Of a stretch of 64,000 nucleotides of DNA, positions 2,561 through 60,771 are shown in pieces. The notes beneath the pieces were generated by a model. The model saw only the letters and a program-made list of their open reading frames with translations. It was not told the DNA's origin and did no database searches. Location of the stretch: contig CABZJY010000001.1 of assembly GCA_902526175.1 (NCBI GenBank), positions 134,698-198,697 on the forward strand, read 5' to 3'. The translations under genes were made by a program, and so were the position numbers. This DNA comes from an uncultured Alphaproteobacteria bacterium (GTDB lineage: Bacteria > Pseudomonadota > Alphaproteobacteria > Methylaequorales > Methylaequoraceae). Each line of letters begins with the position of its first letter. Within the stretch, counting starts at the first letter, position 1.

Positions 2561-3697
2561 ATGGATTTTATGAAAGTTATAAAAATAAAGTTGAAAAATA
2601 TCCAAAAATATTTAATACAGAAAATACCTTTGATTAATACTATTTTGATTTTTTTAAGAAAGTTCTCTTTTTATTTTTTTATTTATCTTTTTTCATATTG
2701 TTTTTTTATATTTCCCTATGAAGCATTATATTATCTATACTTTGGAAACATAATAGGAATTAATTCTTTTCTAATCAACTTTTGTATAACAACAATAGTT
2801 ATTTCTTATTTTCGATCAGTTATAAGGCTTTCTTTTTTAAGGTATTTAATACATTATGGAATTGGAATAGGTTTTATAGGATTTTTCATTTTAATCTTCG
2901 GGCTTTTAATCAATATAATCTTTACTGGAAACTCTGAGAAAATTGCTCTGATATGTCTAAATATTCATATTTTCTTAATTATTCTAAGTATAAAAAATGG
3001 AAATACAATTTATCTCAAAACATTAGATATTAGAACTGATAAAAAGATAAAAACTGATATAAATCTTATTTTTTTAAGTGATCTTCATTTAGGATCTAAT
3101 TCAAAAAATCATTTAAAAAAAATTATTAAAAAAATAAAACAAATTAAATATGATTTGCTTTTAATAGGTGGGGATATGATTGATTCAAGCAAATTTAATC
3201 TTGGTAATTTAAAATTATTTTTTGAAATCAGCAAACCCATAATATTTGTATCAGGAAATCATGAATACTATTTAAATAATTTTAAAGAAAAACTTTCTTC
3301 GCTAAAAGAATATAATATTAATTTTCTAAACAATATGTCTTTCAAATACAAAGAACTTAATATCATCGGTATTAGTGATGATATCAATCTTAATACAAAA
3401 GAAAATCTTACTACAAAATTATTAAAAAGGAATTTTTTTAATTTAGTTTTGGTACATAAGCCTTGTTTATGGGATTTTTTACCAAGCTCAATTGATTTAA
3501 TGCTATCTGGACACACTCATAATGGCCAAATTTTCCCATTTAATTTAATTGTTAAATTAAAGTATAAATACATCTTCGGTTTATACAAAAAATCAAATTC
3601 CAAACTATATGTTTCAAGTGGTTCTGGTTGTTGGGGACCAAGAATGAGGTTAGGATCTAGAAATGAAATAGTTTATATTAAATTAAGAAAAAAATAG
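2561..3697 (+). CDS. Membrane-anchored calcineurin-like metallophosphoesterase (YkuE/YaeI family)
   Basis: N-terminal TM helices; motifs SDLHLG, GGDMID, GNHE, GHTHNGQ, SSGSGCWGPRMR. The true start may be TTG 2630. Confidence 0.9.
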   Translation: MDFMKVIKIKLKNIQKYLIQKIPLINTILIFLRKFSFYFFIYLFSYCFFIFPYEALYYLYFGNIIGINSFLINFCITTIVISYFRSVIRLSFLRYLIHYGIGIGFIGFFILIFGLLINIIFTGNSEKIALICLNIHIFLIILSIKNGNTIYLKTLDIRTDKKIKTDINLIFLSDLHLGSNSKNHLKKIIKKIKQIKYDLLLIGGDMIDSSKFNLGNLKLFFEISKPIIFVSGNHEYYLNNFKEKLSSLKEYNINFLNNMSFKYKELNIIGISDDINLNTKENLTTKLLKRNFFNLVLVHKPCLWDFLPSSIDLMLSGHTHNGQIFPFNLIVKLKYKYIFGLYKKSNSKLYVSSGSGCWGPRMRLGSRNEIVYIKLRKK

Positions 3698-3699
3698 AT

Positions 3700-3906
3700 T
3701 TAACGTTTTTTCCACTTTTTTCCTGTCAAAAGATCATGCACGTAAGTATTTCCCTTCTTATCAAATTTAGTTTGGTACCTTATTGAATCAAAATTACTGA
3801 TTACAATATTTGCAAAAACGAAGATACTTGACAATGTCAAAACTTGTTTCTTTTTTCTAAATAAGAACAGGAGTACTTGTCCTGAGACAAGAAAATAAAT
3901 AAACAT
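3700..3906 (-). CDS. Small hypothetical membrane protein
   Basis: 68-aa ORF with hydrophobic segments and a YVHDLLTGKKWK tail. It abuts the convergent stop of the neighbouring gene; a TATAAT lies upstream. Confidence 0.55.
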   Translation of the reverse strand: MFIYFLVSGQVLLFLFRKKKQVLTLSSIFVFANIVISNFDSIRYQTKFDKKGNTYVHDLLTGKKWKKR

Positions 3907-4000: not shown

Positions 4001-5029
4001 TTAAAAAGAATATTGCCAACCTATTATCGAATTTACACTATCTGACATTTGAATACCTCTTAAATTTTGGTAGACCGGGAATATAAATTCAATACCTAAT
4101 CTATTATTTTTCATGAACTCTTTATGATTTATAAAATTTAATCCAAAACCAAATTCTAATTTGTTGTAACCTTGATTTCGACTATCCATTGCTGGACTCA
4201 TTCTTTTGTTCATTTCATTATCAGAACCAAACATTTTTTCTTGGTATTTGTAATTAATTTTTAAAGATGTTGATAAATTTTTTAACCAACGATAAGAAAT
4301 CCATGTCTTTAAATCAATTAAATTTCCATAATGATAACCTTTTGAATTATGTTTAGAAAAGTTTGTTTTGAACAAAATCTGTTCACCAATCTTAAATTTT
4401 CCTAAATTATTCACATTATTTAAAAATATGAAAGGATCAAGAGTTCCTGTTCCATTCTGCATTGCATATCCAAGACGCGCATTCGATGAAGCAGGTGTAA
4501 CATCTCTTTTATCAATACTACCAGTTGGAATGCTTAACCCAATACCCAATATCGCATCCTGATGATTATCTTGTAGTATTTTAATAAGGCCAGAAATCCT
4601 TATATCTCCAATACCGCTTGAATTTACATCAAATCTTGAACTTCCCGACATCGGCATTCTTTCTTGTTTCATTTCTTTCTCAACATAATTTGTCATCAAC
4701 ATTAGTGTTAAATTGTTATTAGGCGCATACATAGCTCCAAACATGTGCATATCCATCCTCATTTCAACAGGTGAGTTCATATATGTACCAGAATTATCTG
4801 AGGCTGAATTTGGTGAAGCCATAGCCTCCCTAAGGGCTATTTTTTTTTCTCCATTTAATAAACCATGCATTCTCATGTTACTAAAACGATATGAAAACAT
4901 TACTTCACCTTCATTGTGCATATGCTCACCCATTATAGAAATTGGCCCATGGCTGTCTGAAATATGAAGTTCGTCAGCGTGGGAACTTATAAAAACACTC
5001 AAAAAAAGTGTTAAGAATATTAAAAACAT
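4001..5029 (-). CDS. His/Met-rich putative outer-membrane beta-barrel 'transporter' (Phenol_MetA_deg-like), probably metal-related
   Basis: Signal peptide; HGPISIMGEHMHNEGEVMFSYRFSNMRM N-terminus; MRMDMHMFGAMYAP, GIGDI, GLSIPTGS, YAMQNGTGT; C-terminal OMP signature GWQYSF; SD AAGGAGA. Confidence 0.75.
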   Translation of the reverse strand: MFLIFLTLFLSVFISSHADELHISDSHGPISIMGEHMHNEGEVMFSYRFSNMRMHGLLNGEKKIALREAMASPNSASDNSGTYMNSPVEMRMDMHMFGAMYAPNNNLTLMLMTNYVEKEMKQERMPMSGSSRFDVNSSGIGDIRISGLIKILQDNHQDAILGIGLSIPTGSIDKRDVTPASSNARLGYAMQNGTGTLDPFIFLNNVNNLGKFKIGEQILFKTNFSKHNSKGYHYGNLIDLKTWISYRWLKNLSTSLKINYKYQEKMFGSDNEMNKRMSPAMDSRNQGYNKLEFGFGLNFINHKEFMKNNRLGIEFIFPVYQNLRGIQMSDSVNSIIGWQYSF

Positions 5030-5071
5030 TATCTCTCCTTAATTAGATTTAAAATTAAATTTTGTAAAATT

Positions 5072-5365
5072 TTAATATGGGGGAGAGTTTGATTTTGGTT
5101 GTATCTTAGGATTGTGCCTTAAATATGTTTTAAATAATAATTTTTTTACATCTAACTTTAGTAAATTTGAACAGTATTTATTGTTGTTAAGATAATCTAA
5201 TTCAGATAATACACAAAGATTGCAATGATTATTGTTACTATTTTCTTCATTAGAAGAACAAAAACCATCAGGGTTTATATTTATGAAGTTTTTTGCTACA
5301 GAGTTTTGTCCGTATAATAGAAATAAAAAAATAAATATTTTAAAAAAGATTTTACTATTTAACAT
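5072..5365 (-). CDS. DUF2946/CruR/CutF-like leader protein (signal peptide, CxxC, C-terminal NSPP)
   Basis: Likely start ATG 5365. Signal-like N-terminus, FCS, HCNLC, C-terminal QPKSNSPPY; 42 nt upstream of a putative metal transporter. Confidence 0.7.
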   Translation of the reverse strand: MLNSKIFFKIFIFLFLLYGQNSVAKNFININPDGFCSSNEENSNNNHCNLCVLSELDYLNNNKYCSNLLKLDVKKLLFKTYLRHNPKIQPKSNSPPY

Positions 5366-5398
5366 AATAAAGTAAAAACGCAAAACTAATATTACCTT

Positions 5399-5407
5399 AT
5401 TATAACA
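5399..5407 (-). promoter_or_regulatory. Extended -10 promoter element (TGnTATAAT) for the leader-transporter unit
   Basis: The minus strand reads TGTTATAAT about 35 nt upstream of ATG 5365. Confidence 0.5.
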
Positions 5408-5484: not shown

Positions 5485-5664
5485 TTATCCAAATATATTC
5501 TTGATATTTGAGATTGGGTTTCTTAATCTCTCATATACTTTTTCAATAAAACCAATGTGTGTTGACAATTTAGAATCTAGTTCATTTATACTAGATTGAA
5601 GCTTGTTAATTTTAGCTTCTAACTTTTTAATTCTTGCAGCATCAAGGGTATCAATCTTTTTCAT
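5485..5664 (-). CDS. 59-aa coiled-coil hypothetical protein (MKKIDTLDAARIKKLEAKINKLQSSINELDSKLSTHIGFIEKVYERLRNPISNIKNIFG)
   Basis: Read by hand from ATG 5664 to TAA 5485. Clear heptad pattern and amphipathic C-terminus. Just below the ORF-track cutoff. Confidence 0.7.
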   Translation of the reverse strand: MKKIDTLDAARIKKLEAKINKLQSSINELDSKLSTHIGFIEKVYERLRNPISNIKNIFG

Positions 5665-5914: not shown

Positions 5915-6250
5915 GTGTTTTTTTTTCTTAAGGTAATATTTGCTAGCTTAATAATTTCTTTTGCTAGTTGGTTATCATTTAAAAAACCCGCGACCGCAGG
6001 TTTTATTGTTGCTCTGCCATTAGTAAGCATTATAACGATTTTGTTTTCTTACTTGGAATATAAAGATTTCGAAAAAACTATTATATTTTCTAAGAATATT
6101 CTAATAGCTATTCCTTTATCTGTAACATTTTTTATTCCATTTTTTTTAGCAAAGATACTGGGACTAAATTTTTGGTTTACATATTCGTTGGGTCTCTTAA
6201 TTTTATTTTTAGCGTATATTCTACATAAATACCTTAGCAATTTTTTATAA
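5915..6250 (+). CDS. Small four-TM membrane protein (DUF3147-like)
   Basis: 111 aa; LKVIFASLIISFASW..K.P..AGFIVALPLVSI pattern. Confidence 0.7.
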   Translation: MFFFLKVIFASLIISFASWLSFKKPATAGFIVALPLVSIITILFSYLEYKDFEKTIIFSKNILIAIPLSVTFFIPFFLAKILGLNFWFTYSLGLLILFLAYILHKYLSNFL

Positions 6251-6391: not shown

Positions 6392-6862
6392 ATGGAAAAA
6401 AAATTTATTGATTATGGTCAAAGAATAAACAAAGCTCTTCTTCAAGTTGTAAGAGACATATTAATGGACCTATCGGAATTAAAAATTTCATCTAATCATT
6501 GCTTTTACATTACTTTTGATACAGGATATAAGAATGTAGAAATTAGCAAATCATTAAAAAAAGATTATCCAAAAGAGATGACAATTATTCTCCAAAATCA
6601 ATTCTGGGATTTGCTCATATCTGAAGAATCTTTTAGCGTTACTCTTTCTTTTAATAGAAAACGAGAAAATCTAACTATACCTTTTGAATCAATCAAAAGA
6701 TTTAATGATCCCTTCGTAAAATTTAGTTTAGAACTTGATATAAGGAATAAAGTTAAATCTGACTATAAACACTCTAAAGATAAAAATGTTGGTAATAGTT
6801 CAAACAGTAAAATTGACAAAAATATAGTTTCACTTGAAAATTTTAGAAAAAAGAAAGACTGA
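6392..6862 (+). CDS. sspB: ClpXP specificity-enhancing factor SspB (alphaproteobacterial type)
   Basis: HCFYITFDT, YPKEMTIILQNQFWDL, FSVTLSF, FNDPFVKF, C-terminal ClpX-binding IVSLENFRKK. Confidence 0.92.
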   Translation: MEKKFIDYGQRINKALLQVVRDILMDLSELKISSNHCFYITFDTGYKNVEISKSLKKDYPKEMTIILQNQFWDLLISEESFSVTLSFNRKRENLTIPFESIKRFNDPFVKFSLELDIRNKVKSDYKHSKDKNVGNSSNSKIDKNIVSLENFRKKKD

Positions 6863-58932: not shown

Positions 58933-60771
58933 ATGATAAAGAGTTTGGAAAATAACATTGAAAATGGACTTGATATGATCAAGGATTCGCTGCTTTCATG
59001 CCCTAAAACACCTGGTGTATATATTTTTAGTAATAAAAATGAAGTATTATACATTGGGAAAGCAAAAAATTTATTTAAAAGGGTTAAGTCCTATTTAGGG
59101 TTTACTTCTCAAACAAGAAGAATAAAAAAAATGATTTCCTATGCTACAAATCTTAAATTCATAAATACTCATACAGAGTCAGATGCTTTATTACTGGAAG
59201 CTAATCTTATAAAGAAACACAAGCCGATATTCAATATTAGGCTTATAGATGATAAAAGTTTTCCATATATACTAATAAGTAAGAGTAATAACTGGTCACG
59301 CCTGCAAGTAATTAGAGGACAAAAAAAAAATAAAGGATTTTATTTTGGCCCTTTTTCCAGTCCATCAGCTGTAAGAAATGTAATTTCAACTATTGAGAAA
59401 GGTTTTTTAATAAGAAATTGTAATGATAATTTTTTTAAAAATAGAAAAAGACCATGTATGCAATATCAGATTAAAAGATGCTCGGCGCCGTGTGTTGATC
59501 TTATAGAAAACAGAGATTATGAAAAACAAACTGAACAAGCCATTTCGTTTTTAAAAGGTGATGATAAGAAAGTTAAAGAAACCTTGATTCGTATGATGTT
59601 CAATTATAGTAAAAATCAAAATTTTGAAGAAGCAGCAAAAATTCGAGATAGGATAAAATCATTATCAAAAATTAATTTAAAAAACTTTTCAGTAATTAAT
59701 GAGAAATCGAATTTTGATATTATGTGTTTTGCAGAATCTAATAATTCAATTTTTGTACAGGTATTCTTTTTTAGGAATGGAAAAAATTTAGGGAATAAAG
59801 AATATAGGTTCCTTAATAGTAAAGAAAAGGAATTTGATGATTGCATCAGAGACTTTATTGCAACATTTTACTTTCGCCATGAATCTCCATCAGAAATCAT
59901 AATAAATAAAAATATTTCAAAACTGGGTGTGATAGAAGAAGCAATAAAGAAGTTAAAACAAAAAAAAACTACAATTCAGTTTGCAAAAAAAGGACAAAAA
60001 AAAGATCTTCTAATGATTGTTGAAAAGAATCTTGAAAACTCGATTAAAAGATACTTACAAAGTAGTTTACAAAACGAAAAAATTCTTAAAGATTTAAAAC
60101 TAACTTTTGATTTAAAAAAAATTCCAAAAAGAATTGAAGTTTTTGACAACAGTCACTTAAACGGACAAAATCCAACTGGTGCCATGATAGTTTTTGAAAA
60201 TGGTAAATTTGACAAAAGTAGTTATAGGAAATTTAATATAAAAGATATAGAAAAAACAAATGATGACTATCTGATGATGAAACAAGTTTTGCAAAGAAGA
60301 TTTAATTTACAAAAAAACAAAAATACATGGAAAAATGTTTTACCTGATTTAGTTCTAATAGATGGTGGAAAAGGGCATTTAAATATTGCTGAGGATATTT
60401 TAAAGAATTTCAAAAGCATTGAATTTGTTGCTATTGCTAAAGGAAAAAATAGGAATAAAGGAAATGAGTCTTTTTTTATGAAAAATAAATATTTTAAATT
60501 AAAAGAGAATAGTCATTCACTTTTTTTTCTACAAAACTTAAGGGATGAGGCTCATAGATTTGCAATTACAACACAAAGGACTAAAAGAACGAAAAATATT
60601 TATAATTCTGCGTTTGATGATCTAAATGGTATTGGTGGAAAATTAAAAAAATTACTATTAAGTCATTTTGGTTCACTTGAGGGTGTAAAAACAGCTGGTT
60701 TAAAGGATCTTAAAAAAGTACCAGGAATCGGTAATATTTTAGCAAAAAAAGTATATGATGAATTTAATTAA
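58933..60771 (+). CDS. uvrC: Excinuclease ABC subunit C
   Basis: PGVY..LYIGKAKNL..R GIY-YIG, Cys cluster, RIEVFDNSH, IDGGKG, RDEAHRFA, HhH tail. Confidence 0.97.
   Translation: MIKSLENNIENGLDMIKDSLLSCPKTPGVYIFSNKNEVLYIGKAKNLFKRVKSYLGFTSQTRRIKKMISYATNLKFINTHTESDALLLEANLIKKHKPIFNIRLIDDKSFPYILISKSNNWSRLQVIRGQKKNKGFYFGPFSSPSAVRNVISTIEKGFLIRNCNDNFFKNRKRPCMQYQIKRCSAPCVDLIENRDYEKQTEQAISFLKGDDKKVKETLIRMMFNYSKNQNFEEAAKIRDRIKSLSKINLKNFSVINEKSNFDIMCFAESNNSIFVQVFFFRNGKNLGNKEYRFLNSKEKEFDDCIRDFIATFYFRHESPSEIIINKNISKLGVIEEAIKKLKQKKTTIQFAKKGQKKDLLMIVEKNLENSIKRYLQSSLQNEKILKDLKLTFDLKKIPKRIEVFDNSHLNGQNPTGAMIVFENGKFDKSSYRKFNIKDIEKTNDDYLMMKQVLQRRFNLQKNKNTWKNVLPDLVLIDGGKGHLNIAEDILKNFKSIEFVAIAKGKNRNKGNESFFMKNKYFKLKENSHSLFFLQNLRDEAHRFAITTQRTKRTKNIYNSAFDDLNGIGGKLKKLLLSHFGSLEGVKTAGLKDLKKVPGIGNILAKKVYDEFN

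Follow-up and report, generated by a model that had tools for sequence, protein, structure and literature searches.

We analysed a stretch of 64,000 nucleotides from an uncultured alphaproteobacterium of the family Methylaequoraceae (assembly GCA_902526175.1, contig CABZJY010000001.1, positions 134,698 to 198,697; hereafter the window). The source genome has 1.33 Mb on 31 contigs, a G + C content of 29.3% and a completeness of 83%. Read from the sequence, a small open reading frame (ORF) of 97 amino acids and, 3′ of it, a gene for a Met/His-rich outer-membrane beta-barrel form a pair on the minus strand of the window. By its architecture and synteny, the small ORF most likely belongs to the regulatory leaders of the CruR/CutF (DUF2946) class, having diverged beyond recognition by hidden Markov models (HMMs). 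The best overall explanation of the pair, which we consider probable, is that this diverged leader controls the translation of an outer-membrane copper channel by means of a ribosome pause at two consecutive prolines. The class itself is known. New are a large, marine, AT-rich and Pfam-invisible branch with a strictly conserved, Arg-less [NQ]SPP tail, and the recurrent pairing of DUF2946-class leaders with a Met/His-rich, COG4313-like barrel.

The leader and barrel genes

The features of the pair, in window coordinates, are the following:

5072–5365, minus strand: leader ORF, 97 amino acids from the ATG at 5365, with the stop codon at 5072–5074
5291–5365, minus strand: export signal, about residues 1–25, with a basic n-region, a hydrophobic core and SVA-K (inspection of the translation)
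5213–5260, minus strand: cysteine block, Cys36 plus His47-Cys48-Asn-Leu-Cys51 (alignment of orthologues)
5078–5104, minus strand: arrest-like tail module I88-Q-P-K-S-N-S-P95-P96, conserved in orthologues
5082–5087, minus strand: candidate anti-Shine-Dalgarno arm CTCTCC, within the Asn-Ser-Pro codons and complementary to the barrel gene's Shine-Dalgarno (SD) sequence
5030–5071, minus strand: leader–barrel spacer of 42 nt, composition A20 T16 G4 C2
5033–5040, minus strand: strong SD of the barrel gene, AAGGAGAG, read from the sequence
4001–5029, minus strand: Met/His-rich outer-membrane beta-barrel gene, 342 amino acids, with an apparently COG4313 / Phenol_MetA_deg-like fold
5399–5407, minus strand: candidate extended −10-like element TGTTATAAT, 42 nt before the leader ATG, a sequence match only
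3868–3884, minus strand: terminator-like hairpin with a T-run 3′ of the barrel gene, a candidate operon end from a pattern scan

The leader reads MLNSKIFFKIFIFLFLLYGQNSVAKNF...DGFCSS...HCNLC...KIQPKSNSPPY and has the hydrophobic N-terminus MLNSKIFFKIFIFLFLLYGQNSVA. FCS occupies residues 35–37 and HCNLC residues 47–51, and the protein ends in KSNSPPY directly before the stop codon. An alternative start, the TTG at 5383, would give a leader of 103 amino acids. The 3′ end of the spacer reads AAGGAGAG-gata-ATG.

An earlier note on this DNA, made from the sequence alone, had described a 97-amino-acid leader with these motifs, a 42-nt gap and a Met/His-rich barrel gene, all of which are present. Its count of 43 residues between the CxxC and the PP was confirmed as the number of residues between Cys51 and Pro95. 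The extended −10 promoter that it also reported is there as a sequence match, but a similar upstream match (TGnTAnA[A/T]T) was found in just 3 of 29 orthologous loci, and a promoter scan of the region returned 16 sites against 15.4 in shuffled sequence, that is, no excess. The terminator pattern scan of the region gave two sites, with 0.5 expected.

Conservation of the leader and its tail

Related records are labelled as single-cell or metagenome assemblies of uncultured marine Alphaproteobacteria, ‘Rickettsiales’ or ‘Pelagibacteraceae’. The barrel gene is present in 29 of the 36 other genomes of the same family. We examined 30 family loci, including that of the window, and all 30 had a small ORF immediately 5′ of the barrel gene; the pair was intact in 29. 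At L028 (G027:C24) frame breaks split leader and barrel alike, which points to a decaying locus or an assembly error. A pattern search for related loci recovered 31, all of the same clade.

The leaders are only 15–32% identical to that of the window, the barrels 48–65%, and the mean column identity of the alignment of 29 leaders is 31%. Four columns of this alignment are invariant (C36, C48, P95 and P96), S94 is kept in 28 of the 29 sequences, with the motif's second Cys conserved at 90% or more. The context of Cys36 is ‘ICS/ICK/ICT’ across the orthologues and FCS in the window. This upstream Cys lies 9–16 residues ahead of the motif in 28 of the 29 leaders and about 31 ahead in L032. All 29 have 42–45 residues between the motif's second Cys and the first Pro. 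By inspection, each of the 29 also keeps a basic n-region and, after it, a hydrophobic stretch ~15–20 residues long. The ~30 residues that link the Cys block to the tail are unconserved in sequence and fixed in length, and the leader–barrel spacer measures 24–59 nt in most family loci. This pattern of conservation is typical of sensor or arrest leaders.

The SPP that the earlier note described is kept among the orthologues; the CxxC is a genus-level exception. The clade typically has CxxxC (28 of 29 members), and the window alone has CxxC (HCNLC). CxxC was found as well in genus-level relatives of the window (P0006, P0022, P0024, P0025 and P0027).

The conservation of the leader rules out a chance ORF. 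A lipoprotein was likewise rejected, as by inspection the conserved Cys lies 10–15 residues beyond the hydrophobic core and there is no lipobox. Across the 1.33 Mb of the window's genome, the leader is the only small Cys-bearing ORF with a hydrophobic N-terminus and a PP tail.

The tail was compared over 56 unique sequences. Counted from the first Pro, I was found at −7 in 51 of them, [ED] at −6 in 40, [KR] at −4 in 48, [NQ] at −2 in 54 and S at −1 in 55 (Ala in the remaining one), and PP in all 56. The stop codon follows 1–8 residues beyond PP. Among the orthologues, synonymous variation occurs at all three S-P-P codons (TCT/TCA/TCC/TCG for Ser and CCT/CCA/CCG/CCC for Pro). This free change at third positions means that the peptide, and not the RNA alone, is under selection.

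With the profile of the 29 leaders we searched a collection of 5.8 billion proteins and a library of 1.84 billion representatives. The first gave 28 matching proteins, none of them named and none with a Pfam domain. All 27 intact metagenome matches end in [NQ]SPP and have a Cys–Pro spacing of 42–44. In the second, 72 cluster representatives matched, 68 of them further ones. A C-terminal xxPP is kept by 60 of these 68, the other eight being truncated or without a tail. The 60 tails are NSPP (49), HSPP (3), QSPP (3), TSPP (2), NAPP (1), NYPP (1) and RSPP (1), and the Cys–Pro spacing is 42–46 in 57 of them. RSPP belongs to P0062, a leader of the AT-rich type, and NAPP to P0031 and to the family locus L026. 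One metagenome protein, P0090 (122 amino acids), joins the C-terminal half of a leader (Cys motif and RTTSPP tail) to an unrelated N-terminal piece, and is probably an artefact of gene calling or assembly.

DUF2946 leaders in front of homologous barrels

Scans of Pfam and NCBIfam found no family that matches the window leader, and for the window barrel they yielded none of use. The connection to the DUF2946 class comes through the barrel. A barrel profile found homologues in 54 of 401 Alphaproteobacteria, and we read 44 loci with barrel homologues from outside the window's family. At 21 of them (plus the uncertain L112), the ORF upstream of the barrel has the same order of parts as the window leader: a basic/hydrophobic N-terminus, an ‘ICT’ Cys, CxxC or CxxxC, R[AGSD]PP and a short tail. 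The layout of signal, Cys motif, fixed spacing and PP ahead of a metal-related outer-membrane gene, to which the earlier note had drawn attention, is conserved and matches that of the DUF2946 leaders in front of homologous barrels. The pairing with a non-TonB barrel proved not to be special to the streamlined lineage; among Alphaproteobacteria whose leaders have the ordinary RAPP it occurs commonly.

As a positive control, 12 of the 14 canonical leaders that were scanned matched PF11162 (DUF2946) at E ≤ 1. The leader of L032 scored 30.6 bits and that of L105, which ends in RSPP, 30.2 bits. In the 12 canonical loci measured, 41–48 residues lie between the second Cys of the motif and the first Pro. 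Counted to the four-residue motif, the spacing in the clade is 40–43 residues, two to five shorter than the 45 (plus or minus 1–2) of CruR relatives. The ‘ICS/ICK/ICT’ Cys of the clade parallels the ‘ICT’ Cys of the canonical leaders. With respect to the DUF2946 tail, the clade has PP near the stop codon, but within [NQ]SPP, that is, without the Arg and without a third Pro. Leaders of the clade head operons before a Met/His-rich barrel whose family also follows canonical DUF2946 leaders. At L069:2701-3135 (minus strand) and L070:837-1265 (plus strand), RAPP-tailed leaders have, in place of CxxC or CxxxC, a single Cys and a stretch rich in His; these may be a different metal-binding solution within the same leader class.

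A quick maximum-likelihood tree was calculated for 61 barrels, comprising all 44 outside loci and 17 of the 30 family loci (the other 13 were near-duplicates or had odd starts). The xSPP-associated barrels form one clade with a support of 100 in the Shimodaira–Hasegawa-like approximate likelihood ratio test. This clade adjoins L105 (RSPP), L081 and L118 (RAPP) and three leaderless loci, through joining branches with a support of 86–90, in a tree with a midpoint root and a compositional bias flagged by the program. The simplest history suggested by the sequences would be that a DUF2946 leader before the barrel was remodelled in an AT-rich lineage, with R replaced by N or Q, A by S, and a shorter stretch from the first Cys to the motif. 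RSPP (L105, P0062) and NAPP (L026, P0031) appear in the sequences as single-step intermediates that bridge the motifs. RAPP or RGPP is kept in three loci of 41–44% G + C (L074, L077 and L081). A group of ~30% G + C (L102–L104, genomes of 1.4 Mb, another family) has the barrel without an upstream leader, the preceding gene being an unrelated enzyme-like ORF. Because of these two observations, AT-richness alone does not force the change of the tail.

The barrel and its copper context

The window barrel consists of 7.3% Met and 3.2% His, compared with genome means of 2.0% and 1.5%. Just two of the 904 ORFs of at least 200 amino acids are as rich in Met, the window barrel included. His27, His36 and a dozen Met positions show no change, not even in the L032 homologue, which is 30% identical.

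The AlphaFold2 model of the barrel has a predicted local distance difference test score of 81.9 and a predicted template modelling score of 0.80. Top matches of the model in Foldseek were FapF (5o65, E 2.8e-14) and a COG4313 channel (4rl8, E 1.1e-13), with template modelling scores of 0.58–0.61 on the query. In Pfam, the window barrel had no match at E ≤ 1 and stayed below the threshold of PF13557. Two of the three clade orthologues tested reached 23.4–23.6 bits against this family (cut-off 22), the L032 barrel reached 24.7 bits, and 17 of 40 distant barrel frames matched it at E ≤ 1e-5. The predicted structure is closest to the COG4313 / Phenol_MetA_deg channels (Pput2725 of Pseudomonas putida, 4rl8) and to FapF. 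The window barrel differs from them in its His/Met-rich N-terminal segment and its many invariant Met and His, and its homologues are tied to PCuAC and Sco. Known COG4313 and FapF members are channels for hydrophobic substrates or amyloid secretion, not metal channels.

The ties to copper proteins are of several kinds. PCuAC is fused to the N-terminus of the barrel in L068 (same place as L032), L083 and L085, in frames of 505–531 amino acids. A PCuAC gene adjoins the barrel homologue in L070 (just upstream of the leader, confirmed by Pfam), L076 and L080, and a Sco gene in L068 and L085. The window genome carries PCuAC and Sco on another contig. Other neighbours of barrel homologues were a TonB-dependent receptor gene (L078, L079) and CutA1 (L084). 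At L074:1010-1501 (minus strand), in a genome of 44% G + C, a Fur-family gene lies directly downstream of a pair of RGPP leader and barrel, which may mean that metal control in that genome combines a transcriptional regulator with the leader.

Copper is the most likely metal, given these fusions to PCuAC and neighbouring PCuAC and Sco genes of the barrel homologues. In view of the same context, the most likely role of the barrel is that of a pore through which copper passes to the periplasmic chaperones PCuAC and Sco. Zinc is an alternative, since DUF2946 genes in Caulobacter are reported also to head Zn/Cd systems (PMC4176598).

Pairing of the barrel Shine-Dalgarno sequence

In the minimum free energy (MFE) fold of the window's locus, CTCTCC of the leader pairs with GGAGAG of the barrel SD at −8.5 kcal/mol. 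The MFE folds of nearly all orthologues have the barrel SD paired with the S-P-P codons (CTCC/CCTCC with GGAG/GGAGG) or with codons just after them. Where the S-P-P codons are TCACCGCCA-like, the partner of the SD is formed by C/U-rich codons just downstream. An SD motif before the barrel start was recognized by pattern in 27 of 29 orthologues. In 26 of these 27 loci the most probable SD partners lie between −2 and +23 nt from the first Pro codon, and L002 has an extra one at +38. Partners at these positions fall within or beside the footprint of a ribosome paused at PP.

The strong SD of the barrel gene is unusual in this genome. Just 158 of the 904 ORFs of at least 200 amino acids have an SD-like motif 4–15 nt before a candidate start. 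A search of Rfam gave no match above chance in the region, with a single sub-threshold match to eiav_FSE (17 bits against 40).

Proposed mechanism

In the mechanism that we propose, the leader would be exported co-translationally, with the Cys36 / C48xxC51 block at the translocon or in the periplasm while the last codons are decoded. The tail I-x-P-K-S-N-S-P-P would then lie in the upper exit tunnel, with Pro95 and Pro96 in the P and A sites. Slow formation of the Pro-Pro bond would hold the ribosome over codons 93–96. The held ribosome would keep CTCTCC off the barrel SD ~45 nt downstream, and the channel would be translated. From usual footprint sizes we estimate that the SD would be left ~27 nt past the leading edge of the held ribosome. 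How long the pause lasts may depend on whether the Cys block is metal-bound, in a disulfide or pulled, and channel synthesis would follow periplasmic copper. Both the stalling and copper as the ligand are presumed in this scheme, and unmasking of the SD is its most likely output. As to the sign of the control, we slightly favour ‘on when copper is scarce’ (the logic of CruR, for uptake) over ‘on when copper is high’ (the logic of CutF).

The gene efp, for elongation factor P (EF-P), was not found with TIGR00038 in the 83%-complete genome of the window. It is present in 22 of 41 genomes of the family, including 8 of the 9 of high quality.

Contrary evidence and alternative explanations

Several results weigh against this reading. 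With respect to homology, the place among DUF2946 leaders that the earlier note had suggested did not show in profile searches. PF11162 matched none of the 29 clade leaders at E ≤ 10 and nothing in the whole window genome. An alignment with hhalign of the 29 clade leaders and the 14 canonical ones gave a probability of 0.1 and an E-value of 0.54, with only the ‘IC’ residues aligned. All 68 further matches of the leader profile in the 1.84-billion library were of the AT-rich type, with no canonical DUF2946 among them. For want of a profile link, the homology rests on architecture and synteny only. In addition, the barrels of L102–L104 mean that the channel can do without a leader.

The chemistry of the tail is a further contrary point. 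In ApdA/ApdP, no other residue is reported to be able to replace the Arg of RAPP, and R139A is reported to abolish the arrest of CruR in vitro (PMC12992588). Position −2 of the clade, over the 56 unique sequences, is N in 47, Q in 7, H in 1 and T in 1, and never Arg. Ser before prolines favours peptide-bond formation in XPPP reporters of Escherichia coli (PMC4176338), and SPP alone may therefore be a weak pause. Avoidance of NSPP in the proteome was not clear, with one occurrence seen and 2.1 expected, a count that is too small; the single NSPP lies inside an ordinary protein.

These points lend some weight to the view that the leader is a stable secreted or periplasmic Cys protein, co-transcribed with the barrel gene as its metal-binding partner, plug or chaperone, in which SPP would be a structural, docking or processing motif and no arrest would occur. 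In its favour are the missing Arg on which RAPP-type arrest depends, the Ser, which eases bond formation in the reporters, the NSPP inside an ordinary protein of the genome, and the negative searches for a sequence-level link to DUF2946. We nevertheless regard it as unlikely. A linker of ~30 residues that is unconserved and yet of fixed length would be strange in a folded partner, whereas spacers that span the tunnel are typically like this, the conserved part ends just 1–8 residues ahead of the stop codon, and DUF2946 leaders fill the same slot before homologous barrels. Moreover, CutF itself is reported to be rapidly degraded after export (PMC9973294).

If the clade leader does arrest ribosomes, then in the absence of the Arg it would do so via another contact or via plain EF-P-type slowness at Pro-Pro. 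Either the conserved I-E-P-K-x-N-S context might supply other contacts in the tunnel, or the pause might be a modest, EF-P-type one, modulated by the Cys block as proposed for CutF. The stronger form of the first option, that the tail I-[ED]-[PQE]-[KR]-x-[NQ]-S-P-P is a new Arg-independent arrest module with contacts other than those of RAPP/RAGP and is released or strengthened when copper binds to the CxxxC 42–45 residues upstream, is a tentative proposal that we hold to be doubtful as it stands.

Masking of the SD, too, found no statistical backing. The pairing test covered 27 of the 29 loci (L013 and L019, in which the pattern found no SD, were left out), with 100 dinucleotide shuffles per locus. 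The mean probability that the SD is paired was 0.83, compared with 0.77 in the shuffles, which is not significant. For the window the value of 0.65 was below the mean of its own shuffles (0.71). It is also ordinary for this genome, being reached by 38% of the 158 SD-bearing genes (mean 0.54).

The same RNA data bear on a simpler possibility, metal-independent translational coupling. Here the leader would be translated only so that a hairpin covering the SD is opened, and the S-P-P codons would be kept since TCNCCNCC serves as the anti-SD in a C-poor mRNA. This accords with the complementarity between CTCTCC, which lies in the N-S-P codons, and the GGAGAG of the SD, with the pairing of the SD to the SPP codons or nearby C/U-rich ones in the MFE folds of nearly all orthologues, and with the mean pairing of 0.83 in the family loci compared with 0.54 for the 158 SD-bearing genes. 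The third codon positions, however, vary (for example to TCACCGCCA, without CTCC) while the amino acids are invariant, and the SD pairing does not exceed that of shuffles. Coupling of this kind also leaves unexplained the invariant Cys, the fixed distance from Cys to PP and the conserved I-E-P-K-x-N. We consider it highly improbable.

Given how weak the masking statistic is, the output might instead be transcriptional, as in CruR. The ribosome paused at PP would shield the RNA from Rho, and its release would lead to Rho termination before or inside the barrel gene. CruR is reported to work in this way (PMC9426467), and the window genome encodes Rho (686 bits). A spacer of 24–59 nt in most loci, with 2 C in 42 nt in the window, would be a poor rut site, far from the GC-rich spacer of 162 bp between cruR and bfrG. 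A Rho-based output as the main mode of control thus seems very unlikely to us. Polarity inside the untranslated barrel mRNA could still add to control of translation by the paused leader, which remains our preferred explanation.

Comparison with known systems

CutF of Rhodobacter capsulatus (cutFOG) has a CxxxC and the tail PEPEGPPPRL. Its stalling is reported to be sensitive to EF-P and promoted by copper, and to melt a stem-loop whose anti-SD masks the SD of cutO (PMC9973294; bioRxiv 10.1101/2025.02.05.636593). Like the clade, CutF is alphaproteobacterial and has a Sec signal, an upstream Cys with a CxxxC (28 of 29 leaders here), a proline tail other than RAPP and a short spacer. A stem of anti-SD and SD as the output would be a further likeness. 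By arithmetic from the numbering in these papers, the second Cys of CutF is ~40 residues from the first Pro, compared with 42–45 in the clade. The clade differs in its [NQ]SPP with two prolines, in being invisible to Pfam, and in having downstream an outer-membrane barrel, not a periplasmic multicopper oxidase; nor is masking of the SD statistically supported for it. Variation of DUF2946 tails was already known from the accounts of RAPP, PPP and proline-free members in PMC9973294.

CruR (Bp2923) of Bordetella pertussis is described as having CXXC and RAPP with 45 intervening residues, both motifs and their spacing being important, and as controlling bfrG by copper. Copper relieves the arrest, and Rho then terminates in the spacer (PMC9426467). 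In vitro, the P and A sites of the ribosome arrested on CruR are reported to be occupied by its two Pro codons (PMC12992588). CruR and the clade leaders have in common that they are exported, small first ORFs with a Cys motif at a fixed distance from a C-terminal xxPP (in the published CruR three residues ahead of the stop codon), followed by a gene for an outer-membrane metal importer, a putative one in the clade. CruR differs by its RAPP, in which the Arg is essential, and by its CxxC, a GC-rich spacer of 162 bp, a Rho-dependent output and a TonB-dependent transporter. The clade, in contrast, has no Arg, mostly CxxxC, an AT-rich spacer of the short lengths given above and a barrel apparently of the 12-strand type without a TonB plug. 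On sequence grounds the pair in the window appears to resemble CutF more than CruR, considering the CxxxC of the clade, the extra Cys, the lack of RAPP, the short C-poor spacer and the strong SD.

ApdA, ApdP and ApcA (RAPP/RGPP) and SecM (RAGP) are likewise small exported proteins that are encoded upstream of a regulated gene and have xxPP at the C-terminal end, close to the stop, and a variable adjacent N-terminal region is reported to be needed as well. The residue before PP is small in RAPP-type peptides (Ala or Gly, with Ser, Asp or Pro partly tolerated) and in the clade (55 of the 56 sequences have Ser and one has Ala), and Ser falls in the partially permissive class, the change of Ala to Ser in RAPP being partly tolerated in ApdA/ApdP according to PMC12992588. 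The difference lies at −2, where Arg was found in none of the 56 clade sequences and in one of the 60 further representatives.

The downstream classes named in Roy 2022, Ozturk 2023/2025 and Fujiwara 2025 are TonB receptors, PepSY, YcnI, PCuAC, Sco, CopC, MbnPH-like proteins and others. The present barrel is not among the classes named there; the supplementary tables of these papers may list such members. The literature searches that were made found nothing relevant that ties NSPP to the ribosome, or COG4313 / ‘MetA-pathway of phenol’ proteins to copper.

Genomic surroundings

Four genes were recognized around the pair in the window:

6392–6862, plus strand: SspB (PF04386, E 4e-31)
5915–6250, plus strand: small PRK09272-like membrane protein
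5485–5664, minus strand: 59-amino-acid coiled-coil ORF
2561–3697, plus strand: membrane-anchored metallophosphoesterase, YaeI/LpxG-like

The flanking genes have no link to metals, and leader and barrel are a stand-alone two-gene unit. Elsewhere, the genome of the window (G000) has acidic ORFs with Pro/Gly/Met/Asp repeats (MGPPP..., GGPPPGDMPP...) on contig C7 (plus strand, 60275-60653) and on contig C28 (both strands, near its start); the proline content of the genome is 3%.

Implications

Since Pfam misses the AT-rich branch, surveys of small ORFs based on DUF2946 or RAPP undercount such leaders in streamlined marine genomes. The barrel family is a candidate outer-membrane copper channel because of its recurrent ties to PCuAC, Sco and DUF2946 leaders. 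A conserved [NQ]SPP in the slot of RAPP would mean either that arrest has a second chemistry or that this class of sensors needs no more than a plain pause of the EF-P type at Pro-Pro. For bacteria of the oligotrophic ocean that have few transcription factors, a nascent-chain sensor would account for the tuning of trace-metal uptake. If the Arg-independent module is true, abundant, regulator-poor ocean bacteria would have a copper switch that is free of transcription factors, together with a previously unrecognised class of copper channels.

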